Virus record (IMG/VR): IMGVR_UViG_2896201746_000001
Coordinates: 32,001 to 96,000 of that record
Length of the DNA stretch: 64,000 nt
Source: a virus
Lineage: Duplodnaviria > Caudoviricetes
Strand: one strand, 5' to 3'
The notes beneath the pieces were generated by a model. It did no database searches and had not been told where the DNA came from. It saw nothing but the letters and a program-made list of their open reading frames with translations. Positions 5,202 to 62,948 of the stretch are shown one piece after another (the stretch's first letter is position 1; the number at the start of each line of letters is the position of its first letter). Both the position numbers and the translations under genes were made by a program.

Positions 5202-6653
5202 ATGTCGAATAGCCCCGTTACCATCCCCACCGCCTTCGCCGGCGTCACGGCGACCGTCAACCCCGCCACGGGAGCCGCCAGCGCCGCTGCCGCGCCGGCC
5301 GCCTTCACCCCTCCCCCGCCGCCCGAGGCGACGCCCTTCACCGACCCGGAGTTCGGCTCGAAGGTGCTGGCGCTGCTGGCGCTCGACGACCGCTATGCCC
5401 GTGAGGCCGCGAGCTACCTGAAGCCCGGCCATTTCGTCGGGCCGGTCGACCAGAACCTCGCCAAGATCATCCTGGCCTATGTGCGCACCTACAGCCAGCT
5501 CCCGGGCGACATCAAGGCGCTGGCCGAGGTGGTGAAGGCGCATCCCGACGTGCCGGCCGCCGAGAAACCGCTTTATGCCCGCCGGCTGGTCGAGCTGCAC
5601 ACGCTCAACCAGGCCATGCCCAACCGGGCATGGATTCGCGACCAGGCCGTCGACTTCTGCAAGCGCCAGGCCCTCATCATGCTGGCGAGCGAAATCCCGA
5701 CCCTGCTGTCGAAGCCGCACGCCGATTTCGGCAAGATCCGCGACGAGCTGCACCGCACGATGACCATCGGCGAGGGGCTGGGCGCGAATTTCCGCAACCT
5801 CTTCGACGCCGCCGAGATCGAGCGCCGCCGCGAGCGCCGCGACGCCACCGCGACCGGCAAGGGCCGGCTCGGCGTGCCGACCGGCATCGCGTCGCCGCGC
5901 TACAATCTCGACGACCTGCTCTATCACCGCGGTTGGGAGCGCGGTGCGTTCACCGGCATCATGGGCCGGGCGAAGATGGGCAAGACGACATTCTGCGCGC
6001 AGAGCGCCCTGCTGTCGGCCCAGCTTCACGGCCAGAACTGGCTTTACGTCTCGCTGGAGGTGTCGGACGAGATCATTGAAGACCGCACCGACGCGATGCT
6101 GACCGGCGTCAAGATGACCGATCTGCTCGCCAGCCGCGACGCCATCGCCAGCCAGGTCAACGGCCTGACCAAGCTCGGCAAGTTCTTCGTCGAGCGCTAT
6201 CCGGCCAACACCCTGACGACCGACGCCACCGACGCGCTGGTCGGCCGCTATTTCGACCGCGGCATCAAGCTGGACGGCGTCGTGGTCGACTATCTCGGCA
6301 TCATGCGCGTCACGCCGGCCGACGACCGCTACATCGGCCTGGGCAACGCGACCAAGGAGCTGCGCCGCATCGCCGGCAAATACGACGTCGCCATGCTGTC
6401 GCCGATCCAGACCAACCGCGACGGCGTCGGCAAGGCCAATGCCGGCATGGACAAGGTCGGCGAGAGCTTCGCGATCGTCCAGGACTGCGACCTGTTGCTG
6501 GCACTGAACGCGACCGACCAGGAAATCGCCGCCGGCGTCCGTCGGCTCACCGTCGCGGCCTCGCGCAACACCGGCGGCTTCACGATGAAGGTGAAGTCGA
6601 ACATGGAGGTGATGCGCATCGTGGAGGACGTGCTCGATGTCACCTACGACTAA
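5202..6653 (+). CDS. dnaB: Replicative DnaB-like helicase
   Basis: GVPTG, MGRAKMGKTT Walker A, YVSLE, VVDYLG, SPIQTNR. Confidence 0.9.
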   Translation: MSNSPVTIPTAFAGVTATVNPATGAASAAAAPAAFTPPPPPEATPFTDPEFGSKVLALLALDDRYAREAASYLKPGHFVGPVDQNLAKIILAYVRTYSQLPGDIKALAEVVKAHPDVPAAEKPLYARRLVELHTLNQAMPNRAWIRDQAVDFCKRQALIMLASEIPTLLSKPHADFGKIRDELHRTMTIGEGLGANFRNLFDAAEIERRRERRDATATGKGRLGVPTGIASPRYNLDDLLYHRGWERGAFTGIMGRAKMGKTTFCAQSALLSAQLHGQNWLYVSLEVSDEIIEDRTDAMLTGVKMTDLLASRDAIASQVNGLTKLGKFFVERYPANTLTTDATDALVGRYFDRGIKLDGVVVDYLGIMRVTPADDRYIGLGNATKELRRIAGKYDVAMLSPIQTNRDGVGKANAGMDKVGESFAIVQDCDLLLALNATDQEIAAGVRRLTVAASRNTGGFTMKVKSNMEVMRIVEDVLDVTYD

Positions 6654-7251
6654 GGAGCCGTTCGTCCCGGGCGCGGACGGGATTCCGCTGATCTGCGAGG
6701 AGTTTGCCCAGGCGGCGATGGCACGCAACCAGCGCGCGGTGTTCGTCGGCGTGTCGAGCAGCAGCCGGCTGTCGCGGCGCGTCGACCGGGCCTGTGCCCG
6801 GGCCGTCGCCGCCTTCCCGCTCGACTTCATCACCACGCGGCCGGATGGCGAGCGGCGCATCTGCACCGACCGCCTGACCGGCGTCGACCTCCTGGTTTCC
6901 CGCGCCCCGGCCCAGGCCCACGAGTATCCCGAGATCCCTTGGGCCTTCTGGATGAAGAGTTCCTACGAGGTGGCCGTGCTGCTGGCCGACAAGGCGTCCG
7001 ATCTGCTCTGGATCGACCCCGGAGTCGTCCCGGCGGCACGCGAGTTCGAGGAGCGTTTCTTCGACATGGACTGGCAGGCCTATTCCCGCGGCGTCCCATC
7101 GGCCATCGGCTGGCCCACGGCGCAGTGGGAGGCGGTTCAGGCGAACGCGAGCATGGCACGGGCCGCCACGCGGATCATCGAGCGGCGCTGGTTTCCGCGG
7201 GAGGAGGATTCTACCTCCAAAGTGGCACCCGAATGGAGCGAGGGTTGGTAG
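6637..7251 (+). CDS. Hypothetical protein ending WSEGW
   Basis: Overlaps dnaB stop; codon bias. Confidence 0.7.
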   Translation: MSPTTKEPFVPGADGIPLICEEFAQAAMARNQRAVFVGVSSSSRLSRRVDRACARAVAAFPLDFITTRPDGERRICTDRLTGVDLLVSRAPAQAHEYPEIPWAFWMKSSYEVAVLLADKASDLLWIDPGVVPAAREFEERFFDMDWQAYSRGVPSAIGWPTAQWEAVQANASMARAATRIIERRWFPREEDSTSKVAPEWSEGW

Positions 7252-7329
7252 TTTCTTCTTGAATTTCACTAAGCGCTGACATATAAGCAACTCAGCTAAT
7301 CGAGTGTTTTTGGAGAGGCAAAGCCAACC

Positions 7330-7686
7330 ATGAAGTTTTCCGTCGTCGGGTCCAAGGCCTTTCGCGACGCCCATGATGCGTTCGCCGAAGCCAGCAAGGC
7401 AGCCGCTGAAGGGCGCGAACTTCCGCCGGCTGAAACCGCCGAGTTCGAGACGACCGCGCTGGTCAACGACTTCTACCGCGTCCACACGCTGACCGTCGGC
7501 GAGGACGGCAAGCTGGCCGTTACCGGCCAGTTCTTCGCCCGCACCATCGACGACATCTTCGCCGGGGCCGGCGACCGCGGCCTGATCCGCTACGAGCGCA
7601 TCAACGTCTTCCCGTTCCGCCAGCCGGCCGAACGTGCCCCGCGTGCCCCGCGTGCCTCCCGAAAGCTCGCCACCGCTCACGGCTGA
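7330..7686 (+). CDS. Hypothetical protein
   Basis: ORF with RBS-like GGAGAGG upstream. Confidence 0.7.
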   Translation: MKFSVVGSKAFRDAHDAFAEASKAAAEGRELPPAETAEFETTALVNDFYRVHTLTVGEDGKLAVTGQFFARTIDDIFAGAGDRGLIRYERINVFPFRQPAERAPRAPRASRKLATAHG

Positions 7687-7701
7687 TCCCGAGGTGCCCC
7701 G

Positions 7702-8181
7702 ATGACCCAATTCAAGCTCGGCCAGACCATGCGTGACCGCGCCTCCGGCTTCACCGGAATCGCCGTCTCGCGCTTCGACTTCCTCAACGGCAACGTCCAG
7801 TACAGCCTCCAGCCGAAGGCACCGGAAGGCGCGACGACCCTGCCCGAGGCCGTCAGCTTCGACATCCAGCAGCTCGAAGTCGTCGATGCCGGCATCAGCG
7901 ACACCGCCAGCAAGCCCGCCCGCACGCCGATCCGCGTCGGCCAGAAGGTAAAGGACACGATCACCGGCCTGACCGGCGTCGCCACGATGCAGGCGACCTA
8001 CATGAACGGCTGCGTCAGCTTCCTGGTTACGCCGCGCCGCCGGCTCCTGCGCGAGAACGACGCGGAATGGGTGAGCAGCGTGCGTCTGACCGCCATCGAC
8101 GAGAAGCCCGCCATCGAGCCGCCCAAGTCCGAGAAGCCCACCGGCGGCCCGCCGATGCGCGGCGTTCCCCGCGCCGCCTGA
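7702..8181 (+). CDS. Phage protein with two tandem copies of a small beta domain
   Basis: FKLGQTMRDRASGFTGIAVSRFDFLNG vs IRVGQKVKDTITGLTGVATMQATYMNG. Confidence 0.75.
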   Translation: MTQFKLGQTMRDRASGFTGIAVSRFDFLNGNVQYSLQPKAPEGATTLPEAVSFDIQQLEVVDAGISDTASKPARTPIRVGQKVKDTITGLTGVATMQATYMNGCVSFLVTPRRRLLRENDAEWVSSVRLTAIDEKPAIEPPKSEKPTGGPPMRGVPRAA

Positions 8182-8214
8182 TCTCTCACCCACCGCTCAG
8201 CAATAGGAAAGACC

Positions 8215-9591: not shown

Positions 9592-9652
9592 TTCTTGCCG
9601 CATTATCAGTCATCGCTTAACATCATCTTATCGTTTGTTTGTGGAGTTCGCT

Positions 9653-10246
9653 ATGTCCCTGGATTCCCTCGACCCCGCCTGGGCCAAGCTGGTGCAGGAA
9701 GGCTACGCCGCGGTGACAACGGACACGACGCCCGACAGCAAGCCCCGCATCGTCGAGCTGGCCGAGATCGTCAGCCGGGCGGCGCAGCATTTCGTTCAGG
9801 TCGGCCCGGCCGTCGTTCTCGACGCCGCGATCCTGCTGCTCGACAGCAGCAAGGGCGGGCGCGGCATGCGGATCTTCGTGAAGGCCGCCGACGCCGCCGG
9901 CGAGTTGCACAGCCTGATGCTGAGCGGCAACACGAAATACATCGACCTCAAGCTGCGCGAGTACCGCAGCGCCAAGGACGACACCTTCAAGTTCGACAAT
10001 TCCGCTGAATTAACAGAGGACTACCTGTTCTACCTCGCCCGAAAGGCGAACAAGTTAAAGCGGAATGGCAACAACGCGCCGGACATCAATCCGTCCTGGT
10101 CGAGCGCGGTGCTCGCCGAGGTGAAGGCCCGCTGGCAACCCGCTGCCGCGACACCGATAATCGCACCGCCGACGTCGACGGTGCTGCCCTGGCAGACGGC
10201 ACCGGCTGCGCCGGTTGTGGCCGGTGAATGGTCGGAGGGCTGGTGA
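9653..10246 (+). CDS. Hypothetical protein ending WSEGW
   Basis: ORF after operator motif; RBS GGAG. Confidence 0.7.
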   Translation: MSLDSLDPAWAKLVQEGYAAVTTDTTPDSKPRIVELAEIVSRAAQHFVQVGPAVVLDAAILLLDSSKGGRGMRIFVKAADAAGELHSLMLSGNTKYIDLKLREYRSAKDDTFKFDNSAELTEDYLFYLARKANKLKRNGNNAPDINPSWSSAVLAEVKARWQPAAATPIIAPPTSTVLPWQTAPAAPVVAGEWSEGW

Positions 10247-10707
10247 TGTCGACCATCAAGATTCGCGTCACCTATCTGGAGTGCCGCACCGGCCACTCGA
10301 ACAAGTGGTATGTCGGCGTCGACCTGTCCGAGGCGATCGCCGACGGCGAGGAGCGGGCGCTGGTCGGTCATGGCCCGATCGGCTCGATCCAGTCGCTGAC
10401 CGCGACGACGGTACGCGACATGAGCGCCAAGCTGCGCCAGAAGCAGTCGGCGCGGAAAGGCTACGACAGGGCAACGTTCGAGTTCGGCTCGGCCTGGGGC
10501 CGCACGCTCGCCGAGGCGCTGATCCGCAAGACCAAGGAGCTGCTCGGCAGCACGCTGGGGCCGGCCGTGGCAAGCGTCACAACGGAGATGGATGGCGCGG
10601 GCGGGCTGTGGCTGAAGCTCGATCTCGGCGAGATCGCGGAGACGCCCGCTCCATCCGCGCCGGCCGATGTCGTGCTCGACGACGCGCCATGGGCCGAGGG
10701 CTGGTGA
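10246..10707 (+). CDS. WGR-domain-like protein ending WAEGW
   Basis: YLECRTGHSNKWY...HGPIGS...KQSARKGY resembles the WGR domain consensus; TGATG coupling. Confidence 0.6.
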   Translation: MSTIKIRVTYLECRTGHSNKWYVGVDLSEAIADGEERALVGHGPIGSIQSLTATTVRDMSAKLRQKQSARKGYDRATFEFGSAWGRTLAEALIRKTKELLGSTLGPAVASVTTEMDGAGGLWLKLDLGEIAETPAPSAPADVVLDDAPWAEGW

Positions 10708-11129
10708 TGCCGGCGCTGGGAACGCTTGAGGCCGACTTCATCCTGATGGCCGACGAGCTGCTGGTCTGGGCGATGAAGCGCCAGCTCGATCCCGACCGCC
10801 CGGAGGATCTCGCCGAGATCCGCAAGAAGGCGCTTCAGCTCTTCGAGATGGACATCGTCCACGGCATCTTTCACCACGCCGACCAGGTTGTCGCGGACAT
10901 GGTGGCGCGGGTCACGCGCGATCTGCGCAGCGAGAAAGGCGTGCTGGAGACGATCAGGGCGACGATGGCGCGGATCAGGCGGCACGAGGAGCATCGGAGC
11001 GCCGTCGAGGAGCTGCAGGCCCTCCAGCGCCATCTGCCGCTCCTTGAGCGCCTGTCGGCCCGCCTGGAGGAATTGGCGGCACCGCTGCTCGAACAGCGCG
11101 CGGCGTATGAGGCATGCGAAGGGTGGTAA
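10707..11129 (+). CDS. Helical hypothetical protein ending ACEGW
   Basis: Starts MPALGTLE at TGATG overlap. Confidence 0.7.
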   Translation: MPALGTLEADFILMADELLVWAMKRQLDPDRPEDLAEIRKKALQLFEMDIVHGIFHHADQVVADMVARVTRDLRSEKGVLETIRATMARIRRHEEHRSAVEELQALQRHLPLLERLSARLEELAAPLLEQRAAYEACEGW

Positions 11130-12342: not shown

Positions 12343-12702
12343 ATGACAAAAGTTACCGAGCTATATTTGGTGGAAAAAACCCATCACATCAAAACCTCTG
12401 ACGGAAAAGAATATTACTATGGCAGTCTCCCAATGCAGCCGTACATAAAGTGGGTTGGGCTGAATGGAATAGACAACGAATATATCTATACTTTGCAGAA
12501 GTCTCTCGATGAGACCATTATCGGGTCAATAGTCTTTCGAGAGCTGCCACAAGGCGTCCATTTTGTTGGAGCATCAATTCTGGAGAGTCTTAGGAGACTC
12601 GACAAAGATCAAAGGTATTCGGATATTCTCGATAGGATACCGGCCGAACTTCTTGGGCAGCTTGCGGTAGACAACGCCCATCACAAGGATTTTAAAGGCT
12701 AG
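12343..12702 (+). CDS. Low-GC hypothetical protein (moron-like)
   Basis: AT-rich ORF, RBS TAAGGA. Confidence 0.6.
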   Translation: MTKVTELYLVEKTHHIKTSDGKEYYYGSLPMQPYIKWVGLNGIDNEYIYTLQKSLDETIIGSIVFRELPQGVHFVGASILESLRRLDKDQRYSDILDRIPAELLGQLAVDNAHHKDFKG

Positions 12703-13565
12703 GTCTTCTTCTCGTCTCCAAGGAGGTCGAGCTGCACCGCGTCGACCTTCTTGGCGATCCTGGCCTTCCGCCCGACCTTGTGCCGCTTCACCTCGGCCGC
12801 GGCCTCCTTGAGCGCGTCCTCCTCCTTCGGGAACCAGCGCAGCTCGACATGGGTGATCGCCCGCCCCTTCTTCACCGGCGACACCTGGACATGACAGCTC
12901 GACAGCGCGTCGACCTCGGCGACGGCCGGCTCCAGGCAGAAGCGCCGGAAGTCCTGCCAGCGCTCCATCTTGCCCTTCGGCACGCCCAGCGCCGCGCGCA
13001 GCGCCTCCAGCTCGAACGTCTCGGTGAAGCGCCCGCGCAGGCCCGCCCGCTTCTGGACGATCTCGTAGAGCGCTTGGCTGTATTTCGAGGTCATCGCCAG
13101 CATGACCTGCGCCTGCAACCGACCCCAATGGTCCGACTTCGTGATGATCTCGATCACGGTGTCGGTGAAGCGGTAGTAGAGGTTGCCGTCCGGGTCGTCG
13201 TGGGTGAAGCGCGGGCCGAGGATGTAGTCCCTGTACCAGCCCGGCTTGCCGTCGCGCGTCTGCCGCATCTCGATCTGTACCGAGCGCAGCCGGTCGATCG
13301 TCTCATTGATCCGGTCGGTGCTGTCGTGGTTGCCGCGCAGCAGGCGCTTGGCGATGACATGTTCCTTCTTCTCCGTGATCGTCTCCCAGGCGTTGACGAT
13401 CAGCAGGTTGAAGACGGTGCGGTCATATTGGGTCAGGGCTTCGCCGCCGCGAATCTCAATCAGCTCCCCCGGCTTGGGGAAGCTGCCATCGCCGCCTTCG
13501 TAGGCTAGAAGCGGTTGGCCGACGATCGGCTGGTTGACTGTCCGTGATCCCATGGGGCCGGACAT
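12699..13565 (-). CDS. repA: Plasmid replication initiator (Rep_3 family)
   Basis: MTSKYSQALYE, LRAALGVP..KMERWQDFRRFCLEPAVAEV; adjacent iterons. Confidence 0.9.
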   Translation of the reverse strand: MSGPMGSRTVNQPIVGQPLLAYEGGDGSFPKPGELIEIRGGEALTQYDRTVFNLLIVNAWETITEKKEHVIAKRLLRGNHDSTDRINETIDRLRSVQIEMRQTRDGKPGWYRDYILGPRFTHDDPDGNLYYRFTDTVIEIITKSDHWGRLQAQVMLAMTSKYSQALYEIVQKRAGLRGRFTETFELEALRAALGVPKGKMERWQDFRRFCLEPAVAEVDALSSCHVQVSPVKKGRAITHVELRWFPKEEDALKEAAAEVKRHKVGRKARIAKKVDAVQLDLLGDEKKT

Positions 13566-18491: not shown

Positions 18492-20699
18492 ATGTCCGCA
18501 CAGGTGATCGCGATGCGTAAACCCGCAATCGACATCGAGGCCAAGGTGAAGTGCCGGGAATGCGGGTTCGAGGGGCATTCCCTCTACAAGCATATCCAGG
18601 ACGCCCATGGCCTGAGCGCCGAGGACTACATCGCCAAGCATCCCGGGGCCGAGCTGCTGTCGCCGCTCGGCAATGAGGTGATGAAGGCGCATTTCTCGGC
18701 CCAGGCCGAGGTACGCTACACCAGCGAGCCGAAATCGTCGATCGACCTGTTCGCCATCGGCTTCGGCAAGGCGACCGGCTACACCAAGCAGATGCCGGTG
18801 CGTACCTATGCCGGCTTCACCAAGGAGCACGGCGTCCCGGACGTCGATCCGAACTACTACTTCCCCGAGGCCGTCAGCCGCGACCTCATCATGGGCATGG
18901 AGAAGGGCGGGCGCGTCTATGCCCACGGCCCGACCGGCTCCGGCAAGTGCCTCGGCAAGGGCACGCCGGTGATGATGTTCAACGGCACGATTCGGCCTGT
19001 CGAGGATGTGCGGGTCGGCGATCTGCTGATGGGGCCTGATAGCTTTCCGCGCCGCGTTGTGGCGATCGGCAGCGGGCGCGAGCCGCTTTATCGCGTCGTG
19101 CCGACCAAGGGCGATGCCTACGTCGTCAACGAGAGCCATATTCTGTCGCTGCGCATGACGAACGGATCAAAGCGCTCGTGCGGCATTGAGGATGGCTCAA
19201 TCGTCAACATCGAGGTGCGCGACTACCTTCAGAAGACATCGACCTTCAAGCATTGTGCGAAGGGCTGGCGCGCTGGTGTCGATTTTCTCCCCCTGGCCGA
19301 GCCGCTGCCGCTTGAGCCGTATTTTCTTGGTCTTTGGCTGGGTGACGGCAATTCGGCGAACTCGAACATCTGGTCGACGGAACCCGAGATCGGCGCGTAT
19401 CTTCACGACTACGCCCGTCGCCTTGGAATGGTGTGCCGCGAGGACCGCTCGGCGTCGTCCGTCGATCTCGTCACCTACTCGATCTCGAAGCCCGGAGGTA
19501 AGAAGCATACCCACGTTTTGCGCCAGGCGCTTCGCCTGCACGGCCTGATCGACAACAAGCATGTTCCGCATGCCTATAAGACGGCATCGCGTTCCGAGCG
19601 CCTGGAGCTTCTGGCCGGCATCATCGACACCGACGGCTGCCTCGGTGTCGGCGGCTATGATCTGACGCTGAAGTCCGAGCGCCTGCTGGATGACGTGGTT
19701 TTCGTGGCGCGTTCGCTCGGCTTTGCCGCATACAAGGCGGAAGCCAAGAAGACCTGCGCGAACAACGGCGTCGAGGATATCTATTATCGCTGCTGGATCA
19801 GCGGCGACATTGACCAGATCCCGTGCCGCGTCGAGCGCAAGAAGGCGACGCCGCGACAGCAGGTAAAGAATGTGCTGAACGTCGGCATCACGCTGGAGCC
19901 GTTGGGCGAGGGCGACTACTACGGCTTCCAGATCGAAGGACCGGATCGCCTGTTCCTGCTCGGCGACTTCACGGTGACGCATAACACCACCTGGTTCGAG
20001 CAGTTCGCTGCCCGCACCGGCCGCCCGTTCTGGCGCGAGCAGATGTTCCGCGAAAAGGAGCCGGTCGAGCTGACCGGCCTGTGGGTCGTCAATGACCGCG
20101 GCGCGATGGAGTATATGTACTCGGGCTTGGTGAAGGCGCTCCAGCAGCCGTCGATCATCTGCTTTGACGAATACGACAGCGGCAACGCGGTCGTCACGGC
20201 CATGTGCAACGCCCTGTTGGAGGGCAAGCCGCTGATCCTGGGCAACAAGGGCGGCGAGAAGATCTGGCCGCATCCGGAGTGCATCATGGTCGCCACCGGC
20301 AACACCAACGGCATGGGCGACGACACCGGCCTGTATGCCTCGACCAGCGTGCAGTCCTTTGCCACCATGAACCGCTTCCGCATGTTCGTGAAGATCGACT
20401 ACATGCCGGAGGAGAAGGAGCGCGAGGTCATCAAGCGCGTCTTCCCGAAGCTCCCCGAGGGCCGGGTGAAGAACATCGCGAAGGTCGCAAAGCTGGTGCG
20501 CGACGGTTACATCGGCGGCAAGGTGAGCTGCCCGCTCTCCACGCGCCAGGTGCTCAACTGGGCGGACTGGGATATGAGCACCGGCGAGTCCGGCCGCTCC
20601 TTCCGCCTCGCCTTCGTCAACCAGCTCAACGAAACCGACGCGAAGGTCGTCGGCGAGCTGTACCAGCGCGTTTACGCCAAGAGCATCGACGAGGATTAA
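18492..20699 (+). CDS. CobS/MoxR-like AAA+ ATPase with N-terminal C2H2 finger, intein-containing
   Basis: CREC...HIQDAH; GPTGSGK|T; FDEYD; ATGNTNG; NRF; STRQ. Confidence 0.9.
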   Translation: MSAQVIAMRKPAIDIEAKVKCRECGFEGHSLYKHIQDAHGLSAEDYIAKHPGAELLSPLGNEVMKAHFSAQAEVRYTSEPKSSIDLFAIGFGKATGYTKQMPVRTYAGFTKEHGVPDVDPNYYFPEAVSRDLIMGMEKGGRVYAHGPTGSGKCLGKGTPVMMFNGTIRPVEDVRVGDLLMGPDSFPRRVVAIGSGREPLYRVVPTKGDAYVVNESHILSLRMTNGSKRSCGIEDGSIVNIEVRDYLQKTSTFKHCAKGWRAGVDFLPLAEPLPLEPYFLGLWLGDGNSANSNIWSTEPEIGAYLHDYARRLGMVCREDRSASSVDLVTYSISKPGGKKHTHVLRQALRLHGLIDNKHVPHAYKTASRSERLELLAGIIDTDGCLGVGGYDLTLKSERLLDDVVFVARSLGFAAYKAEAKKTCANNGVEDIYYRCWISGDIDQIPCRVERKKATPRQQVKNVLNVGITLEPLGEGDYYGFQIEGPDRLFLLGDFTVTHNTTWFEQFAARTGRPFWREQMFREKEPVELTGLWVVNDRGAMEYMYSGLVKALQQPSIICFDEYDSGNAVVTAMCNALLEGKPLILGNKGGEKIWPHPECIMVATGNTNGMGDDTGLYASTSVQSFATMNRFRMFVKIDYMPEEKEREVIKRVFPKLPEGRVKNIAKVAKLVRDGYIGGKVSCPLSTRQVLNWADWDMSTGESGRSFRLAFVNQLNETDAKVVGELYQRVYAKSIDED
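18948..19985 (+). mobile_element. Intein with LAGLIDADG homing endonuclease in Walker A
   Basis: CLGKGTPV start, LGLWLGDG and LAGIIDTDG blocks, VTHN/T end; 346 aa. Confidence 0.95.
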
Positions 20700-34148: not shown

Positions 34149-34208
34149 AGGCTCGTTCTGTCGTATCATTCAACGATGACAGAACTAAAGCCCATAGGAG
34201 TGGATCAG

Positions 34209-34676
34209 ATGGCGACGACCTTCACGGCCGACCAGCTCCGTGTCGGCATGGCGCTGCGCTACAAGGGCGACGACGTTCCGTTCGCCACGCCCTTCCTGAA
34301 GAACAAGGGCAACAAGCTCGGCAACTGGCTGCTGCCGAGCTTCACCGTCAACCCGGCCGCCCCCAGCGGCCGGAAGTGGGAAGACCTCCCCGGCTCCAAG
34401 CGCGACACCTACACGATCACCAAGATCGAGACGGGCCGCAAAGGCAAGGGCGGCCGGCCGCTCGAAGACCTCATCCATATCGTCGGCGAGGGCTACGCGC
34501 AGGGCACCGTGTTCGGCCTCGTCCCGGCCGACGTGATCGCGAAGTTCGAGCTGGTCGGCGACGCGGTCGACATGCTCGATCCCGAGAAGCTGCCCGATGA
34601 GATCAAGGCGCATCAGGCGACGATCCTGCGGGAGGCAGAGTGGTCGCGGCAACTCCAGCTCACCGAGGGCTGGTGA
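34209..34676 (+). CDS. Hypothetical protein ending LTEGW
   Basis: RBS AGGAG; codon bias. Confidence 0.7.
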   Translation: MATTFTADQLRVGMALRYKGDDVPFATPFLKNKGNKLGNWLLPSFTVNPAAPSGRKWEDLPGSKRDTYTITKIETGRKGKGGRPLEDLIHIVGEGYAQGTVFGLVPADVIAKFELVGDAVDMLDPEKLPDEIKAHQATILREAEWSRQLQLTEGW

Positions 34677-34984
34677 TGGTCGATCTGGTTTCGCTCAGCG
34701 CCGAGGACATCGAGGCGGCCCGCGCCGTCTTCGGTATCCTGGCGCAGGCCGAGGACACGGTCGAGGATCTTGTCCGCCGGGCCGACCGCTCGGCCTGCGA
34801 TCTGGTCGTCACCGAGGACGGCGACGAGGTCGAGCTGGTGCTGGAGGGCGACTTGCTGCGAACGCGGATGTCGCGCGCAGCGTTCTGCGAGGCGGCCGTC
34901 AGCAGCGGCCGGTTCCGCTTCGCCGGCGAGCACATGCGCTTCATGCCGCTCGCCTGGAACCGGGCATGGAGCCAGGGATGGTGA
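34676..34984 (+). CDS. Hypothetical protein ending WSQGW
   Basis: TGATG coupled, MVDLVSL... Confidence 0.7.
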   Translation: MVDLVSLSAEDIEAARAVFGILAQAEDTVEDLVRRADRSACDLVVTEDGDEVELVLEGDLLRTRMSRAAFCEAAVSSGRFRFAGEHMRFMPLAWNRAWSQGW

Positions 34985-35430
34985 TCGACACCTTCAGCGG
35001 CCGATACCGCTTTCTCAGCAACTTCGCGCCCTCCCCGATCGTCGCCGTGGGCATCCGCTTTCCGACCGTTGAGCACGCCTTCCAGGCGCTCAAATCGACG
35101 AGCCGGAGCGACTGGGAGAAAATCGCTATGCTGCCGACGCCGGGGCTGGCGAAGCGCGCTGGCCGCGGGCTGGCGCTGCGGTCGAACTGGAGCGAGGTGC
35201 GCGTGGCCGTGATGACCACGCTCGTCCTGCTGAAATTCTGCACCCATGTCGACCTGCAGCGCCGGCTCGTCGCTACCGCGCCGGCTACCCTGATCGAAGG
35301 CAACACCTGGGGCGATCGCTTCTGGGGCGTCTGCGGCGGGGTCGGCGAGAACAATCTCGGCAAGATCCTGATGTACGCCCGCGATCTGGCCGCAGCCGGA
35401 TGCTTGCCGCATACAGCAATGCCCCAATAG
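34978..35430 (+). CDS. NADAR/YbiA family protein
   Basis: FLSNF, FPTVEHAFQALK, KF..H..L...L, EGNTWGDRFWG...G.N.LGKILM. Confidence 0.92.
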   Translation: MVIDTFSGRYRFLSNFAPSPIVAVGIRFPTVEHAFQALKSTSRSDWEKIAMLPTPGLAKRAGRGLALRSNWSEVRVAVMTTLVLLKFCTHVDLQRRLVATAPATLIEGNTWGDRFWGVCGGVGENNLGKILMYARDLAAAGCLPHTAMPQ

Positions 35431-35710: not shown

Positions 35711-36052
35711 ATGGCTGCATTGCTGAATGCCGACCACATGGGCCGGTATGTCGAGGTCTGGCGCACGCTCTCGGCCATGCAGTCGCCGCTCTCGCGCGGC
35801 CGGATGATCTGGCGCTGGCATGACGTGGGCCTTGGCCTCGATCTTCCGGCGGAGCGCCGGTACACGACGCGGCCGGGGCCGGACGGGGAGCTTCGCAGGG
35901 AGCTGCTCTATCAGCGCGACTACGACCTCCATCGCGCCGCCCTGGAGCTGATCGCCGCCGGCGCTCTGCGGGTCGACCATCTTCCGAACGGCGACTGGGT
36001 CTATCCGGACGCCGCGTGCTGGGAGGCGCTGCAATGGGCGGACGGCTGGTAG
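35711..36052 (+). CDS. Hypothetical protein ending WADGW
   Basis: ORF flanked by 8-bp arrays. Confidence 0.65.
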   Translation: MAALLNADHMGRYVEVWRTLSAMQSPLSRGRMIWRWHDVGLGLDLPAERRYTTRPGPDGELRRELLYQRDYDLHRAALELIAAGALRVDHLPNGDWVYPDAACWEALQWADGW

Positions 36053-36104: not shown

Positions 36105-38228
36105 ATGATGAAACTTGTGTCTGTGAAGGCCGAGAATTTCGGCCCCTTCGTCGAAGCCGGCCTTCGTCTCGACGACCGCGGCCTGCTGCTGGTGCAGGGC
36201 GACAACCAGCTCTCCAGCTCGGCCGACAGCAACGGCTCGGGCAAGTCGTCGCTGCTGGAGGCGATCTTGTGGGCCAACTTCGGCCGCACGATGCGCTACG
36301 ACCTGCGCGGCAAGCCGACCGGCGACGAGTACGTCAACAACCGCTTCGGCCCGACGCCGGGGAAGAACTGCCGCGTGACCTGCACCTGGGACATCGACGG
36401 CCGGAAGGTCGAGATCCTGCGCACCCGCAAAGACAAGGCCCTCAAGAACGTCGTGATGGTGTCGGTCGACGGCAACGACATGACCCGCGGCACGATGAAG
36501 GAGACCGACCGGCTGATCGAGGAGCTGCTCGGACTGGACTTCAATGCGTTCGTGCGCTCGGTCTATTTCGACGGCTCGAAGATCGTCCCGTTCCCAACCC
36601 TGACCGACAAGGAGATCAAGGACGTCTTCGAGCGCGTCCTGGGGCTGGACGATCTGTCGAAGGTCGCCCAGGTCGTGAAGGACAAGCTGCGCCTCGCCAA
36701 TGCCAACCTGTCCGGCGTCCAGAACGATCTGCGCCTCGCGCAGGCCCAGCACTCCACCGCGCTGGTCGAGCAGCAGGTCGCCGAGGGGCGGCAGGCGACG
36801 TTCGAGGCCGAGCGCGCCGCGGAGGTCGAGCAGGCCGAGCGGGAGATCGCCACGCTGGCCGGCACCAGTCAGCGCGATGCCGCCGCGATCCAGGCCGATG
36901 ACGACGCGCTGGCCGCTCGGGAGGCCGAGGCGCATGCGAAGCTCGGCAAGCTCCAGCGCCTCGATGACGCTATTGCTCAATGGAGCAATGACCATGCCGC
37001 CGCACAGAGCAGCCGGGCGACGGCCGCGGCGACGCTCAATCATCTGCGCGCCCAGAACCCGGTGCCGCCGACGGCGCTGCTGATGGAGCGCCAGCAGATC
37101 GCCGGCGAGATGGACCGGCTGGCGCGCGAGATCGGCCGGGTGCAGCATGACATCCAGCATGCCGAGGGCAGGGTAGGGACGGCCTGTTCGGAATGCGGCA
37201 AGCCGGTGGAGCAGGGCGACGTCGAGGGCTTCGTCGCGGCGCAGAAGGGCAGGCTGAACGATCTTGGCCGCCAGCACGCCGACCTGAAGCCGAAGCTGGC
37301 CGACGTCGATGCCCGGATCGCCGCCGACGAGCAGACCCAGCGCCAGGCCATCGCCGCGCGGATCGCGACGGCCGAGGGCGAGCTGGGGGCGGCGAACGCC
37401 CGGCTTACGGCGCTGGGCGAGACGAAAGCGAAGCTCGACAGCTTCGCGACGCTGCGCACGGACATGCAGCGGGTGCTCGCGGAGCTTTCAGGAGCGCGTT
37501 CTCGTCTCGCTGACGAGCGACACGCAGCAGAGCGCGCGAACGCATCCATCGAAGCCCTGCGCGCCCGGATCGCAGACGTGCGCGCCAAGCCCAACCCCTA
37601 TGTCGAGGATGCCGGCCGTTGGAAGACGCGCATGGACGAGCTGGCAGCGCAGATGACCGGGCTGGAGGAGCGGGCGGCCGGCTACGAGAAGGAGATCGGC
37701 CAGCTCAAGGTGCTCGACGACGCCTACGGCCGGACGGGGCTGAAGGCGCATATCCTGGAGACGGTGACGCCGGTGCTGAACGACCGCGCCAACGACTATG
37801 CCCAGCGCCTGGCCGACGGCAAGGTGAAGATCGAGTTCGCGACCGTCACCCGGCTCAAGGACGGCACGCTGGCCGAGCGCTTCTCGGTGAATGTCGAGAA
37901 TGACGAAGGGGCAGGGGCCTATCACGGCCAGTCGTCCGGCGAGAGCCGCAAGATCGACCTCGCCATCGCGCTCGCCATGTCCGATCTCGTCGCCGCCCGT
38001 GCGTCCAAACCGATCGACCTGTTCGTCGCCGACGAGATCGCCGAGAGCCTGGATCCGACCGCGGTGGAGCGCGTCGTCGGGCTGCTGCAGGACAAGGCCA
38101 AGGAGCGCGGCACGATCCTCTGCATCAGCCACGCCGACATGCGCGACCTGATCCCGGACATCGTCACGGTGCAGAAGACGGCGGCCGGCTCGCAGATCAT
38201 CGACGGCGCGATCACGGGAGGGTGGTGA
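36105..38228 (+). CDS. sbcC: SbcC/Rad50-like SMC ATPase (ends ITGGW)
   Basis: NGSGKSS, coiled coil with CSECG hook, SSGE signature, VADE. Confidence 0.93.
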   Translation: MMKLVSVKAENFGPFVEAGLRLDDRGLLLVQGDNQLSSSADSNGSGKSSLLEAILWANFGRTMRYDLRGKPTGDEYVNNRFGPTPGKNCRVTCTWDIDGRKVEILRTRKDKALKNVVMVSVDGNDMTRGTMKETDRLIEELLGLDFNAFVRSVYFDGSKIVPFPTLTDKEIKDVFERVLGLDDLSKVAQVVKDKLRLANANLSGVQNDLRLAQAQHSTALVEQQVAEGRQATFEAERAAEVEQAEREIATLAGTSQRDAAAIQADDDALAAREAEAHAKLGKLQRLDDAIAQWSNDHAAAQSSRATAAATLNHLRAQNPVPPTALLMERQQIAGEMDRLAREIGRVQHDIQHAEGRVGTACSECGKPVEQGDVEGFVAAQKGRLNDLGRQHADLKPKLADVDARIAADEQTQRQAIAARIATAEGELGAANARLTALGETKAKLDSFATLRTDMQRVLAELSGARSRLADERHAAERANASIEALRARIADVRAKPNPYVEDAGRWKTRMDELAAQMTGLEERAAGYEKEIGQLKVLDDAYGRTGLKAHILETVTPVLNDRANDYAQRLADGKVKIEFATVTRLKDGTLAERFSVNVENDEGAGAYHGQSSGESRKIDLAIALAMSDLVAARASKPIDLFVADEIAESLDPTAVERVVGLLQDKAKERGTILCISHADMRDLIPDIVTVQKTAAGSQIIDGAITGGW

Positions 38229-51243: not shown

Positions 51244-51444
51244 ATGAAGATCGAGAAGATCCCAGGCTTCGGAGCGCTGGAAATCTGCAAGGACACCGGC
51301 GATCTGGCCTTCACCATCCCCGAGCGTCTGCTCGACCATCCCGACCTGCTTCGCGACCTGTTGAAGCTGGCCGAGGCCGGCGGCGGGAAGGCGATCAGGA
51401 CGGTCGAGGTCAATGGCCGGCATTGGGTGCAGGTTCCCGAATGA
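51244..51444 (+). CDS. Small hypothetical protein
   Basis: MKIEKIPGFG...; ATGA overlap with the next gene. Confidence 0.55.
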   Translation: MKIEKIPGFGALEICKDTGDLAFTIPERLLDHPDLLRDLLKLAEAGGGKAIRTVEVNGRHWVQVPE

Positions 51445-51854
51445 TCCGGAGTTGGTCAGAGCATGCCCGCGACTTTGCCGACGAAGCGCATGAGGCTGTC
51501 CGCAAGGTCGCCGAGCGGCACGGCATTCACGTCACGATGAAGCCGATCGCGCCCAGCCGCGGCGCGACGCTGACCCTGACGATGAAGGCGCATCTCACCG
51601 AGCCGAAGCTCGACGGCATGGCCGGCGTCTTCCTCGGCACCCACCGTCAGCTCGGCCTGGACCGCGAGGATCTCGGCCGGCGCTTCGCCTGGAAGGGCAG
51701 GGTGGCGAAGCTGGTCGGCGCTGACTTCGGCGAGCGCCCGCTCATTGCCCAATTGCCCGATGGCTCAATGGAGCAATTGACGACGGACGAGTTCAAGGCG
51801 GGCTGCCGCGCGCTCGCCGACGGCGAGATCGAGCAGCTCGACGGCGACTGGTGA
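51441..51854 (+). CDS. Hypothetical protein ending LDGDW
   Basis: GLDREDLGRRFAWKG phage-type segment. Confidence 0.65.
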   Translation: MIRSWSEHARDFADEAHEAVRKVAERHGIHVTMKPIAPSRGATLTLTMKAHLTEPKLDGMAGVFLGTHRQLGLDREDLGRRFAWKGRVAKLVGADFGERPLIAQLPDGSMEQLTTDEFKAGCRALADGEIEQLDGDW

Positions 51855-55540: not shown

Positions 55541-55545
55541 TCGCC

Positions 55546-57823: not shown

Positions 57824-59641
57824 ATGAAAATGGAAGTTATCCAGTATAGTAAGCGTCAATCTGCGTCGAAAGCAGCAAGCCCGGCAGAAAGTTTGAATGC
57901 TGCCCGAGTAATGGCGCGTGCGCTTTCTGAAGCGACGCCGGAGAGTGATCGGGGATCTCTGGCGCGTTCTTTTTGCCACCGGCTTGTCTCGGCTTGGTGG
58001 AGGGCTCTGACGTCTCCTGCTCATGACCTTGAGCTTCGCCCTTTGTTTGAGCACGAAGAGCTATCGGATCTTCCAGAGCCTGCCGCCGCGTCGGCCGACA
58101 GCATCGGCATGGCAGCGGCGACTTACGATCCAGAGCGTGCGGCCTACGCTATCGGCCTCATCTACACGGGCATGCTGCCACAAGCCTTTCGGGCTAGTCA
58201 CGGCATGTACTATACGCCGCCGGAATTGACAGCCCGTCTGATCGAGCAGGCGACTGTCGCTGGAACGGATTGGGCGCGCTGCAGGGTCTTGGATCCAGCC
58301 TGTGGTGGAGGGGCGTTCCTGGCTCCTGTTGCTCGGAGGATGCTCTCAGAGCTTGAAGGCGTTACCCCGGCCATCGCGATTAAAAATGTGTCAGGCCGGT
58401 TGCGTGGCTATGAGATTGACCCGTTCGGAGCTTGGCTTTCGCAGGTCACTCTTGACGCCGTGATGCTGCCGATGTGCCGACAGGCAAAGCGGCACATGCC
58501 GTTGGTGGTGACAGTTTGCGACAGCCTTAAAAGCCGTCCGCCGCGTGAGAGGTTCGACCTAGTTATTGGCAACCCACCCTACGGCAGGGTGAAGCTCTCT
58601 CAAGACGAGCGCGCCCGCTTCCAGCGCAGCCTTTATGGCCATGCCAATCTTTACGGGCTTTTCACCGACATAGCCCTTCAACATGTGCGGGCTGGAGGCG
58701 TCATCGCCTATGTCACGCCAACGAGTTTTCTGGCTGGAGAATACTTCAAGAATTTGCGTTCTCTGCTCGGCTCCAATGCTCCACCTGTGACGGTGGACTT
58801 TATCGCCGTGCGTAAGGGCGTATTTGAGGACGTTCTTCAAGAAACTCTCCTCGCTACCTATCGCCGGGACGGGAAGGCCACTGGTGCTGAGGTATTCGAG
58901 GTTATGCCGAATGGGGAGCAGGGAATCCGGGCAATCCGCGCCGGCAGCTTCTCCCTACCTGAAGACCAATCTCAGCCCTGGAGGCTGCCGAGAACTCCAG
59001 ATCAGGCCCCTCTCGTTGAGCAACTTCAGGTCATGCCACACCGGCTGGCTGACTGGGGCTATGGTGTCAGTACGGGGCCTCTCGTCTGGAATCGACACAA
59101 GGAACAACTCTGCAGTGCGAAGGGCTCCGGACAGCTTCCACTTATCTGGGCCGAAGCAATCACGGCTGATGGGAAGTTCATTTTCCGCGCAGAGAAAAAG
59201 AACCATGAGCCTTACTTTAAGCCGTTGCCGGCAGATGATTGGCTAATTACGCGCACGCCTTGCGTTTTGTTGCAGCGTACGACTGCAAAAGAACAGAGCC
59301 GGCGGTTGATTGCCGCCGCTCTGCCGGCGTCCTTTCTGAAAAAGCACGGCGGAGCCGTGGTGATTGAGAACCACCTCAATATGCTGCGCCCAATGGGTGC
59401 AAAACCCAAAGTGTCGGCTGCTGTTCTAGCTGCTTTCCTGAACAGCGATGCCGCAGACAAGGCTTTCCGCTGCGTCAGCGGCAGCGTCGCAGTATCAGCC
59501 TATGAACTCGAGGCTTTGCCCCTCCCTGATCCGGCATCGCTCAAATCGCTCGCCGAACTAGTGCGCCGTCGGGCCGGAAGAAAGGCCATCGAAGATGAGT
59601 GCAATCGACTTTATAACAGAAAGACGGAAGACAGTGAATGA
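57824..59641 (+). CDS. Type II N6-adenine DNA methyltransferase (gamma class)
   Basis: YYTP, LDPACGGGAF, GNPPY; lower GC. Confidence 0.92.
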   Translation: MKMEVIQYSKRQSASKAASPAESLNAARVMARALSEATPESDRGSLARSFCHRLVSAWWRALTSPAHDLELRPLFEHEELSDLPEPAAASADSIGMAAATYDPERAAYAIGLIYTGMLPQAFRASHGMYYTPPELTARLIEQATVAGTDWARCRVLDPACGGGAFLAPVARRMLSELEGVTPAIAIKNVSGRLRGYEIDPFGAWLSQVTLDAVMLPMCRQAKRHMPLVVTVCDSLKSRPPRERFDLVIGNPPYGRVKLSQDERARFQRSLYGHANLYGLFTDIALQHVRAGGVIAYVTPTSFLAGEYFKNLRSLLGSNAPPVTVDFIAVRKGVFEDVLQETLLATYRRDGKATGAEVFEVMPNGEQGIRAIRAGSFSLPEDQSQPWRLPRTPDQAPLVEQLQVMPHRLADWGYGVSTGPLVWNRHKEQLCSAKGSGQLPLIWAEAITADGKFIFRAEKKNHEPYFKPLPADDWLITRTPCVLLQRTTAKEQSRRLIAAALPASFLKKHGGAVVIENHLNMLRPMGAKPKVSAAVLAAFLNSDAADKAFRCVSGSVAVSAYELEALPLPDPASLKSLAELVRRRAGRKAIEDECNRLYNRKTEDSE

Positions 59642-60720
59642 GTTTACCTCCTTATGTGTCGCGTAGCATTGTTTCTGAACGCCTCCCGCTGATATTTCCG
59701 GAAGGCACTCCAAACAGGACCTACTGTATTCGGGAGTTGGCTGCAAGCGCAGTCTTTACTGCTATATACATAGGAGCAGTTGAAGGTGCGGCGCGCTATC
59801 TTGGGCCGGTACACGTCTATCGGATGACAGAACAGCAGGCAGCGTTGGCCGATTCGGGGAGCCGCGAGGCTTACGCAGCAGGAATCCTGAAGAAGAAATT
59901 CCGTGTGCCCGGCGAACGTTGGTACGCCGATAACACCCGTGAGCCGATCCGTGACGAAACTCTAAGGGATGGATTGGTCGCCGTCGGAGCGGTTCTGCGC
60001 CGTGAGGATCTGCCGACCACGTCCGGGTTGCCGCGTTATCAACTCAAGGGAAGTTTTGCTGGGCTTTTTGATCCAGCTCTCGAGGGAGAAGGTCTGGAGA
60101 AGGCCATTGCTAATTTCCAAGCAACGCACCTCAGCAAAAGCGCTTTAGCGAGGATATCCATCATTCTTGCTGGAGCTGCTGGGAAAGAGGGTGGAGTTCT
60201 TGTCACCTTTCCCAACAAGGAGACAAGAACGCTGGCTCCGGGGCCAAGCTCAATTATCTCTAAAGACGTTATCGAAGTATTTTCCGCGCACTTCCTTGAT
60301 AAGCCTGCCGTGCTTTGGTTGAGCGAAAGCGGAAATAAGGTGGTTGCTAAAGACGATAAACTTGCAGCAGCCATTGGTTTGAAGATAGAGGCTGACAAAA
60401 ATCTTCCAGATCTGATTCTGGCGGATCTTGGACCGGCCGACCCGCTCATTGTATTTGTCGAAGTGGTGGCAACAGACGGCGCAATGACCAAAAGGCGAAA
60501 GGAAGCTATGCTAGAGTTGACGGATGCAGCCGGCTTTCCGCGCACCCAGATCGCCTTTTTAACAGCCTACCAGGACCGGGAGTCCGCTGGATTCAAGAAG
60601 ACGGTGGCGGGGCTTGCGTGGGGGTCATTTGCTTGGTTAGTCTCCGAGCCGAAAGGTATTATTCACATGCGTGACGGCGAGACGAGTTTTCGACTCTTGG
60701 ATGCGGTGATAAAAACATAA
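59638..60720 (+). CDS. BsuBI/PstI-family restriction endonuclease
   Basis: YADNTREPIRDETL, LAPGPSS, LPDLIL, FVEVVATDG, FLTAY, LAWGS. Confidence 0.9.
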   Translation: MSLPPYVSRSIVSERLPLIFPEGTPNRTYCIRELAASAVFTAIYIGAVEGAARYLGPVHVYRMTEQQAALADSGSREAYAAGILKKKFRVPGERWYADNTREPIRDETLRDGLVAVGAVLRREDLPTTSGLPRYQLKGSFAGLFDPALEGEGLEKAIANFQATHLSKSALARISIILAGAAGKEGGVLVTFPNKETRTLAPGPSSIISKDVIEVFSAHFLDKPAVLWLSESGNKVVAKDDKLAAAIGLKIEADKNLPDLILADLGPADPLIVFVEVVATDGAMTKRRKEAMLELTDAAGFPRTQIAFLTAYQDRESAGFKKTVAGLAWGSFAWLVSEPKGIIHMRDGETSFRLLDAVIKT

Positions 60721-61733: not shown

Positions 61734-61735
61734 CC

Positions 61736-61972
61736 ATGAGCCGCGCCCCCTGGCCCGGCAAGGCCATCACCGGCTACGTCCGGAAGAGCCTGGACGACAA
61801 GCCCTGGGACGCCTCCTTCCAGCCGAAGCCTGACGCGAAGTTCTTCACCGCCCGGCCACGGCCGCTCGAAGACAACGGCTGGAAGGTGCAGTTCGAGGGC
61901 CGCTGGTATCCGCTGCGGGGCGGCATTCACGTCCCGTTCTCGATCCTCCTGAATACGCCGCTATCGCCATGA
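61736..61972 (+). CDS. Hypothetical protein
   Basis: ATGA overlap with the next gene. Confidence 0.6.
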   Translation: MSRAPWPGKAITGYVRKSLDDKPWDASFQPKPDAKFFTARPRPLEDNGWKVQFEGRWYPLRGGIHVPFSILLNTPLSP

Positions 61973-62478
61973 TCCTCGCCGTCACCGGGCACCGACCCGA
62001 GAAGCTGGGCGGCCACTCGCCGGCGCTACGCCGCAAGCTCGCCGTCTTCGCGTCGTTCCGGCTCCGTCACTTCATCCAGACCCACGGCCGGCCCGACAAG
62101 ATCATCTCCGGCATGGCGCTGGGCTGGGATCAGGCAATGGCGATCGCGGCGATCGCCGCCGGCATCCCGCTGGTGGCGGCCGTCCCCTGCGACGCCCAGG
62201 ATGCGACCTAGCCGGCCGAGAGCCGCGCCTTCTATCGGATCCTGCTGCACCGCGCCGCCGAGTTTCACGTCATCAGCCCCGGCCCCTACGAGGGCTGGAA
62301 GATGAACACCCGCAACGAATGGATGGTCGATCACAGCGACCGGCTGCTGGCGCTGTGGGATGGCTCGCAGGGCGGCACTGCGAATTGCGTGCGCTATGCC
62401 CGCGGCCTCGGCCGGCCGATCGACAACCTCTGGAGCGAATGGGAGAAGTTCACCGATGCTCTTCATGCCGCTGATTGA
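61969..62478 (+). pseudogene. SLOG/YspA (DUF1273-like) gene interrupted by in-frame TAG at 62209
   Basis: AVTGHRP, ISGMALGWDQ, AVPC..QDAT*P, then RNEWMVDHSD.LLALWDGSQGGTANCVRYA in the same frame. Confidence 0.85.
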
Positions 62479-62686
62479 GATTCCGGACCAGCTCGCCGAC
62501 CGCGTTCAGGCTGCCTTCTACCCGGAGAAGCCGCTCAACGAGCGCCAGTTCGCCGTCCGTTCCTACATGGCCGACCGGATCACCGACATGGTCCTGCAGC
62601 ACATTCCGCTGGTCAGCCGGGACAGCATGAAATGGGACAACCGCCGCGGCGACGCCGCCGGCGACGGCAAAGTGCTCGCGAGCTGA
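62456..62686 (+). CDS. Hypothetical protein
   Basis: MLFMPLIEIPDQ...; RBS GGGAG. Confidence 0.55.
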   Translation: MLFMPLIEIPDQLADRVQAAFYPEKPLNERQFAVRSYMADRITDMVLQHIPLVSRDSMKWDNRRGDAAGDGKVLAS

Positions 62687-62690
62687 GCCG

Positions 62691-62948
62691 ATGGCGGTCG
62701 TTCCGCAGGAGGAGCGCCTACGGGCGTTCCGGGCGATCGCCCAGGCGCGGCTCCGGCGCTGGCCTGGGCTTGCCGATGCGGCGAGCGACGCCGGCTTCGT
62801 CGCCCTCCCGCCGGCCGTGAAGATGCAGCGCTTGATGGCCGAGGGCGGGCCGTGGTCGAGCTATCGCTTCGGCGATCTGGATCGGCCGGAGCGGGCAATG
62901 ATCCTCCGGGAGATCGCCGAGGCGGCCTTCTTCGCCGACGGCTGGTAG
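62691..62948 (+). CDS. Hypothetical protein ending FADGW
   Basis: ORF track; codon bias. Confidence 0.65.
   Translation: MAVVPQEERLRAFRAIAQARLRRWPGLADAASDAGFVALPPAVKMQRLMAEGGPWSSYRFGDLDRPERAMILREIAEAAFFADGW

Follow-up and report, generated by a model that had tools for sequence, protein, structure and literature searches.

Why should nine unrelated proteins of one phage end in the same two residues? The question is raised by a 64,000-nucleotide stretch of the Caudoviricetes record IMGVR_UViG_2896201746_000001 in IMG/VR (the window; bases 32001-96000 of a source record of 112,120 bp and 64% G+C), which covers the non-structural half of the genome and carries nearly all of its genes on the plus strand. 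A first-pass annotation of this DNA had picked out nine proteins ending in Gly-Trp-stop (GW). We conclude that the GW tail is a selected C-terminal peptide motif that probably acts as a docking tag for one common, inferred partner; comparison of genes and genomes indicates that the peptide itself is under selection and is not a by-product of translational coupling. Genes were called with a purpose-built codon-usage caller, which gave 142 genes in the 112,120-bp record. The caller missed at least two real genes (a restriction–modification pair at 57824-60720), so gene-count denominators are approximate.

Each of the nine gene ends was confirmed, and all nine genes are on the plus strand. The first, an orphan gene at 6637..7251 (204 residues), starts within the end of the DnaB-like helicase gene and ends ..PEWSEGW-TAG. 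Downstream of the primase gene, a 201-residue orphan (9641..10246) runs through a Pro/Ala/Thr-rich linker to ..GEWSEGW-TGA in the 14-mer GAGGGCTGGTGATG, and its stop is overlapped by the ATG of the next gene. That gene (10246..10707, 153 residues) ends ..APWAEGW-TGA in the same 14-mer with a TGATG overlap, and the protein database contains a 153-residue product beginning at the 10246 ATG. By synteny it occupies the position of an annotated WGR-domain gene in Rhizobium phage RHph_X66; its WGR likeness comes from this position and from inspection by eye, and Pfam gave no match. The adjoining orphan (10707..11129, 140 residues) ends ..YEACEGW-TAA, and the gap behind it holds an operator-like TCA-N8-TGA site. 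Between the SbcD-like and SbcC-like genes lies 34200..34676 (158 residues), which ends ..W-x7..TEGW-TGA with a TGATG/GTGA overlap. The 103-residue orphan at 34673..34984 ends ..RAWSQGW-TGA, with a NADAR-domain gene starting across its stop, and the 110-residue orphan at 35720..36052 ends ..LQWADGW-TAG. An SbcC/Rad50-like ATPase of 701 residues (36123..38228; Pfam SMC_N/AAA_23, phrog_77 at 3e-108) carries a short Gly-rich extension, ..AITGGW-TGA, with GGAGGG 7 nucleotides before the next ATG. The last member, an 85-residue orphan (62691..62948), ends ..AFFADGW-TAG; the gene directly downstream of it encodes an Mrr-like endonuclease (63058-63957). Apart from the SbcC-like ATPase, none of the nine proteins has a Pfam or PHROG family, and BLAST among the nine detected no mutual similarity. 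The two variant ends noted in the first-pass annotation were present as well, SGWE at 27127 and DGDW at 51854. The latter closes a 137-residue protein (51441..51854, plus strand, ..QLDGDW-TGA; no Pfam or PHROG family), which is the tenth Trp-terminal protein and a possible variant member of the group; the 112-nucleotide gap behind it contains an operator-like site.

The recurrence had been described as far above chance, and the counts bear this out. GW is the C-terminus of 9/142 genes against 0.27 expected from the proteome GW dipeptide frequency (binomial P 1.5e-11), and the enrichment is robust in that just four cases would still give a P of 1.8e-4. Trp is the last residue of ten of the 142 proteins (2.1 expected), and the Trp-terminal genes all fall in the early region (10/98 genes there versus 0/44 elsewhere). 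The motif also concentrates at chain ends: five of the six W-x-x-G-W strings in the proteome are at the extreme C-terminus, and seven of the ten occurrences of [ED]-G-W are terminal. Position -3 is acidic (E or D) in 7/9 tails, with Q and G in the remaining two; this is one acidic residue rather than a run of them, and W-[SA]-[EDQ]-G-W ends six sequences if the mini-open reading frame (ORF) described below is included. P/A/T-rich or other low-complexity stretches precede three of the tails (P/A/G/S/T fractions of 0.7, the linker of 9641..10246, and of 0.47 and 0.4). As had been reported, the tails between them employ each of the four Gly codons and each of the three stops. Chance is ruled out by these statistics, and paralogy of the carriers by the lack of mutual BLAST similarity. 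Reading of TGA as Trp was also rejected, TGA being the main stop codon (100/142). Mutation of TGA to TGG at tandem stops would add one Trp and leaves Gly at -2, the acidic position -3 and the Trp at -5 unexplained, along with the conservation among homologues.

A nucleotide signal could leave the same trace in proteins. On this explanation, GAGGGNTGGTGATG would be a translational-coupling cassette spread by recombination, any copies now uncoupled would be remnants in decay and the peptide itself would be functionless. It draws on the five of nine tails (ends at 10246, 10707, 34676, 34984 and 38228) that precede a coupled start, with a Shine-Dalgarno-like sequence, a stop/start overlap and, in every case, TGA; three of these junctions are the identical 14-mer GAGGGCTGGTGATG, made up of a Shine-Dalgarno sequence, a 6-nucleotide spacer and the TGATG overlap. 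Both signals are absent from the other four tails. The first-pass annotation had listed these four (7251, 11129, 36052 and 62948) as having no overlapping downstream start, and we measured gaps of 78, 71, 70 and 109 nucleotides, respectively; they end in TAG or TAA followed by 70-109 nucleotides with operator and promoter motifs. GW occurs at 4/56 uncoupled and 5/50 coupled same-strand junctions, so that, as had been argued, a ribosome-binding site or overlap cannot explain every tail.

Several further observations make the cassette explanation very improbable. In the uncoupled copies, the amino acids are retained but their codons abolish the Shine-Dalgarno sequence (GAC GGC TGG TAG). In the coupled tails, the Trp codon sits in the spacer, a position free of Shine-Dalgarno constraint, and a cassette does not need it there: about 45 further coupled junctions of the genome function without a Trp codon. 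Homologues discussed below keep G-W with TAA, TAG or TGA, with a downstream gene or none, and even at 55% G+C; 17/30 distant homologues of one carrier retain GW in the protein. Nor is the underlying string dispersed, since nine of the 15 plus-strand copies of GGNTGGTRR are in-frame gene ends (11 copies lie on the minus strand). The E. coli Chi octamer resembles GCTGGTGA; a Chi-like dispersed hotspot was ruled out on the same distribution. A programmed +1 frameshift of the prfB type (SD-like GAGGG before UGG-UGA) was rejected by inspection, as the Trp-tRNA has no +1 re-pairing and four cases have no downstream ORF.

Some features of the DNA weigh against a reading at the protein level alone. 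The identical 14-mer at three junctions is itself a sign of nucleotide-level constraint. The codon preceding Trp -5 ends in A in 5/5 cases (GAA, GAA, CCA, GCA and CAA at 7231-7236, 10226-10231, 10687-10692, 34964-34969 and 36032-36037, each pair including the Trp codon), creating ATGG. In these codon families, codons ending in A account for 4-19%, and the product of the frequencies is about 6e-6, a figure computed post hoc. The ATG so created, 19 nucleotides upstream of the last base of the stop, is in frame with the downstream gene in three of the five cases and opens an 8-9-codon ORF in two. None of the four uncoupled GW genes uses TGA, which 23/56 uncoupled genes avoid generally (P about 0.03). 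A tenth copy, ..GGWAEGW-TGA-TGA, closes a 17-codon ORF (G000:C1:102045-102098) about 6 kb past the window end in a G-rich region without called genes, and an 11-codon ORF follows it; it may represent either a gene junction in decay or a junction cassette that was copied. An analogue exists in Pseudomonas phage nickie (NC_042091.1), where the junction GGAGGNTGGGCATGA (Shine-Dalgarno plus ATGA overlap) gives G-G-W-A, S-D-W-A or G-S-W-A on four annotated genes ending at 68029, 84946, 86317 and 88716; only ends matching the record annotation were used there, where the caller made wrong-strand calls. The ATG pattern, the TGA avoidance and the gene-poor WAEGW copy suggest that the same dozen nucleotides were also selected at the RNA level or copied between junctions. 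These oddities do not overturn the protein-level evidence. One overlap can moreover be dispensed with. In near-identical relatives from three public runs (X2, X6 and X7), position 34987 is joined to 35419/35425, with 23-29 other nucleotides replacing the NADAR gene (34985-35430). The sequence through three bases past the 34984 stop is shared, and no tail difference is among the variants listed. As the NADAR gene is absent and the 34984 stretch shared, the 34984 tail is not maintained by that overlap.

Retention of the tail among orthologues, a comparison proposed in the first-pass annotation, favoured a peptide-level tag in both families with detectable homologues, namely 34200-34676 and the SbcC-like protein. 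A phmmer search with the 34200-34676 product against 1.84 billion cluster representatives gave 34 matches. Two long multi-domain proteins were left out; of the 32 sequences retrieved, two were fragments of about 100 residues and 30 were full length, with 25-53% identity to the query except for one 96% near-copy. Seventeen of the 30 end in GW, three in another residue plus W, one in EGWG and one in GDWF. The remaining eight carry a different type of tail, A-A-N-x-x-[WF]-G-x-F. In the family alignment, a conserved domain of about 110 residues is followed by an unconserved linker of variable length and then by the conserved W148 and the terminal GW; a conserved island closing a variable region is how a short linear motif typically shows itself. 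The AlphaFold2 model of the 34200 protein shows the same division, with a β-rich domain of pLDDT >93, a linker at 57 and a terminal helix at 73-85 whose last three residues are coil. A fold search with the domain returned only weak SH3/Tudor/FeoA/CarD-like matches (Foldseek E >0.1; VIA Z <=5.9), within the range of common arrangements. Searches by tblastn with the 34200 protein against phages and plasmids, and with P0030 against phages, found nothing. A family-profile hmmsearch found the family only in this phage and in the relative L010; it detected none in the RHph_X66 stretch or in 57 IMG/VR loci of about 20 kb. These loci (on contigs up to 118 kb) were collected through an SbcC alignment and called with the same codon-usage caller, which placed the genes of two or three of them mostly on the wrong strand.

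The SbcC-like family tells a similar story from a protein of recognisable function. Its ATPase core is conserved up to ..K-x-x-x-G-S-x-hydrophobic, and in some homologues a Trp-ended, Gly-rich extension is added after it: P0044 (51% identity) ends ..GAGGGW, P0047 (43%) ..RLGGGW and P0046 (44%) ..AGRTW. The SbcC of L011 (66% identity) ends ..AGGGW, encoded GGT TGG TAG and followed by about 95 nucleotides of intergenic DNA; a tail that is coupled in the window thus exists uncoupled in a relative. In L009, the order is SbcD, a 34200-family gene ending ..MEGGW (GGT TGG TAA-TG) and SbcC. L010, from a 105-kb contig of 55% G+C with the gene order of the window, has a 34200-family gene ending ..VQEEGW, an unrelated 110-residue gene ending ..IKETGW, an SbcC ending ..QMATW and another gene ending ..KEKGWL; three of its 30 genes end in W (P 0.015). 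With no Trp-ended SbcC copy in the IMG/VR loci, the SbcC tail goes with the GW lineage, the one that also has the 34200 family. The intergenic DNA behind the L011 SbcC gene (L011:565-660) contains a site resembling the TCA-N8-TGA operator-like motif of the window (7265-7285), with a central AGCGCT core, and such a putative regulatory motif appears to be common to the window and its relatives.

Selection on the peptide does not by itself require one reader. The Trp could serve each family separately, as a helix cap, in self-association or in a DNA contact, and the recurrence would then reflect convergence or exchange of 3' ends. The 34200-family tail lends itself to this explanation in that it closes a conserved helix with a second invariant Trp; further, the tail can be tested in two families alone, and many SbcC homologues work without it. 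Convergence of nine unrelated proteins on the same last two residues, and of six (the mini-ORF included) on W-[SA]-[EDQ]-G-W, counts against it. The 34200 family also switches between two discrete tail types with its domain unchanged, and the SbcC tail is an add-on past the conserved end of the ATPase domain. We therefore judge separate roles without a common reader to be unlikely.

Beyond the GW lineage, other aromatic tails were found. In the IMG/VR loci, 48/1163 unique proteins end in Trp versus 14.9 expected, although the loci are related and a P value would overstate their independence. Many loci contain one to four genes near SbcC/RuvC that end [WFY]-G-x-[WF], often after D-N-P, such as ..DNDAWGMF, ..DNPVWGSW and ..DAPNFGAF, and the tails of further lineages read ..[ED]-[AST]-W or ..A-V-W. 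Between SbcC and RuvC, the loci L012-L068 encode a family of 123-240 residues (28 members in 28 loci) that always ends [FWY]-G-x-[WF]. The same tail is found on further small genes beside this family, none of which BLAST links to it, and PHROGs gives no function for the families so tailed. The related lineages thus seem, on sequence, to have lineage-specific types of aromatic tail.

These comparisons also supply further points on the opposing side. The W..GW helix may belong to the basic structure of the 34200 family, as opposed to being a portable tag. Conservation can be tested in 2/9 proteins; 6637-7251 and 10246-10707 have no homologue beyond their own 90% clusters, and tblastn with the former against phages was empty. 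Most SbcC homologues are without the tail, which is lacking in 7/10 of those retrieved and present in 0/53 of those in the IMG/VR loci. In RHph_X66, the nearest cultured relative examined, 0/56 annotated genes end in W; eight have a terminal Phe, among them the WGR-domain protein (..YGRF) and two unrelated proteins that share the end ..FGAF. Agreement in the last residue among tails within a locus, seen in 4/5 loci, was not significant (permutation p 0.09). No tail-binding partner emerged from the sequence, fold and comparative leads to a hub.

A reader need not be a docking partner, and the main rival to docking is a C-terminal degron: early and middle accessory proteins would be marked for timed destruction, read by a protease (ClpXP/ClpAP/Lon-type or tail-specific) or an adaptor. 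The placement of the motif at the extreme C-terminus, on many unrelated proteins and on non-structural genes only, would suit such a signal. Ala-Ala-COOH, with which the ssrA degradation tag ends, is also over-used (15/142 versus 2.4 expected, P 2e-8), which suggests turnover-related selection at C-termini. We know of no degron with the GW sequence. The variation of tail type among related lineages (GW, [WF]G.[FW] and others) is more easily squared with a phage partner that co-evolves than with host proteases, which are conserved; the tail is borne by the long-lived enzyme SbcC, and a Pfam scan of 40 window proteins revealed no protease gene. A degron is accordingly an explanation to which we give a small share of the probability. 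The Ala-Ala ends include those at 4035, 8181, 8409, 15442, 39613 and 52149, many of them not overlapped by a downstream start; in the related IMG/VR loci, 228/1163 proteins have Ala as their final residue (113.7 expected), and Ala-Ala ends 10/56 genes of RHph_X66.

The docking tag is preferred because of the strict requirement for the chain end, the acidic neighbour in 7/9 tails, the linkers and the discrete tail switch within one family. The motif is [W/F]-[S/A]-[E/D/Q]-G-W-COOH, with G-W-COOH as its minimal form, carried by at least nine unrelated replication/recombination proteins of a phage-plasmid-like siphophage. The terminal Trp and free carboxylate, often beside an acidic residue, would dock in a pocket of one common partner that recruits or regulates accessory proteins at the replication/recombination machinery, much as SSB tips, T7 gp2.5/gp4 and clamp-binding tails do. 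In five cases the tail codons GAG GGC TGG TGA secondarily serve as a ribosome-binding site and stop/start overlap.

Our preferred guess is that this partner is encoded by the phage and changes with the tail type. Candidates are the CobT-like vWA/CobS-like AAA+ pair, the odd C-terminal domain of DnaE, SSB and SbcD. The CobT-like vWA domain has an intact D-x-S-x-S MIDAS (metal ion-dependent adhesion site; here D-H-S-G-S), the only point that favours CobT as the reader. Passages of a 2026 preprint on a true cobalt chelatase place the last two helices of the client CobN near the CobT MIDAS, an analogy that would make a CobT reader plausible and no more. Capsid loading, also raised in the first-pass annotation, is an unlikely role for clients that belong to replication and recombination. 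A 262-residue protein upstream of DnaB was followed as a hub lead; a sequence search of the PDB and a search of the ESM Atlas were empty. Five G/A-F-P-G-A repeats lie in the long disordered tail of this phage's SSB (27987-29216). An aromatic 'sticker' or condensate role suggested by these repeats was dropped for want of comparative support, the SSBs of relatives having no such repeats. Wider-clade SSBs share an E-L-D-D-L-L-G-[DE]-L-type tip instead of the acidic Ile-Pro-Phe; the SSB of L010 ends ..ADDEIPF. A broader extension of the docking tag is possible but distinctly tentative: DnaE-encoding phages and phage-plasmids of about 100-120 kb may use a private address code, each lineage with its own aromatic tail (G-W here, [W/F]-G-x-[F/W] and others elsewhere) by which a varying set of small accessory proteins and enzymes such as SbcC would be read by one co-evolving phage hub, possibly the CobS/CobT-like machine of the replication module. 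Under such a code, new genes would enter the replication/recombination factory by gaining five codons.

Elsewhere in the window, a Pfam scan identified an SF2 helicase in addition to the DnaB-like helicase, and the primase gene lies upstream of 9641..10246. Also present are the CobT-like vWA and CobS-like AAA+ proteins, DnaE, SSB, a 5'-3' exonuclease, RecA, the SbcD-like and SbcC-like nuclease subunits (the latter by Pfam and PHROG), a RuvC-like resolvase, a ribonucleotide reductase (by BLAST to the RHph_X66 annotation), thymidylate synthase and dihydrofolate reductase. The CobS-like gene (18492-20699) is split by an intein with a Hint domain and a LAGLIDADG homing endonuclease (residues ~153-442). 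Inside the otherwise plus-strand replication module, a Rep3-type plasmid replication initiator (12699-13565) is encoded on the minus strand, which suggests a phage-plasmid lifestyle. The restriction–modification pair at 57824-60720 is of the PstI/BsuBI type (N6 methylase and endonuclease) and has atypical codon usage. Among cultured phages, even the closest relatives are remote: DnaE is 33% identical to that of RHph_X66, with which the window shares a matching gene order, and about 30% identical to those of Pseudomonas phage nickie and SSU5-like Escherichia/Klebsiella phages. A DNA search for close relatives gave one 39-nucleotide match, in the ribonucleotide reductase gene, among phages and none among plasmids. 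Locus searches with single proteins (SbcC, primase, DnaE and P0047) in viral and genome contigs found no relative, except that the search with DnaE returned some at 32-34% identity.

If the tail is a docking tag, it would give a first functional handle on eight orphan proteins, as clients of one replication/recombination partner, and its five residues would make a simple bait for that partner. Phages would then build insulated, lineage-specific interaction networks from tiny portable tags, which would explain how acquired genes are integrated in mosaic genomes and may shed light on what the CobS/CobT-like genes, frequent among these phages, do. The window also illustrates that a peptide motif and a translational-coupling signal can occupy the same 12 nucleotides. 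Literature searches turned up no account of a Trp-ended tail shared by proteins of a phage; devices of this kind are known, but a phage system of many clients with one tail was not found in the literature searched.

Among known devices, PDZ class III ligands read [E/D]-x-hydrophobic-COOH, a pattern that fits 7/9 tails, and the Pfam scan of 40 window proteins had no PDZ match. Phage T4 gp43, gp33 and gp55 have C-terminal tails that bind gp45, and clamp-binding motifs in general resemble the GW tail in that unrelated proteins of DNA metabolism use a short, often C-terminal hydrophobic/aromatic motif to reach one hub pocket. PMC11139829 gives the bacterial clamp-binding motif as Q-phi-x-[L/M]-[F/L] or Q-phi-x-[L/M]-x-[F/L] and reports weaker binding to the clamp when Trp replaces the terminal Phe. 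Identity of the GW tail with this motif was rejected, as Gln and Leu/Met are missing from the required positions in all nine tails; the 40 proteins scanned included no clamp.

The bacterial SSB tip is another parallel, described in the abstract of PMC9917605 as acidic residues ending Ile-Pro-Phe-COOH. It too is a short extreme C-terminus with an aromatic residue and a free carboxylate, used in DNA replication and repair; the single acidic residue of 7/9 tails and the low-complexity stretches before three would be the counterparts of its acidic residues and flexible linker. The logic would be inverted, however: SSB is one tailed hub with many readers, whereas many tailed clients here imply one reader. 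The GW tail also lacks Pro-Phe, and the phage's own SSB has the end ..ELDSILGGL instead of GW. A similar arrangement is that of phage T7, in which gp2.5 and gp4 have acidic, Phe-ended C-terminal tails and both bind the T7 DNA polymerase. The gp2.5 tail is a subject of PMC12339929 and PMC10359462. In both phages, different replication proteins would share an acidic, aromatic-ended tail that one phage protein reads. T7 has two carriers, both in the core replisome, whereas there are nine or more here, mostly small orphans together with SbcC, and the GW tail ends in Trp instead of Phe and is much shorter and less acidic.

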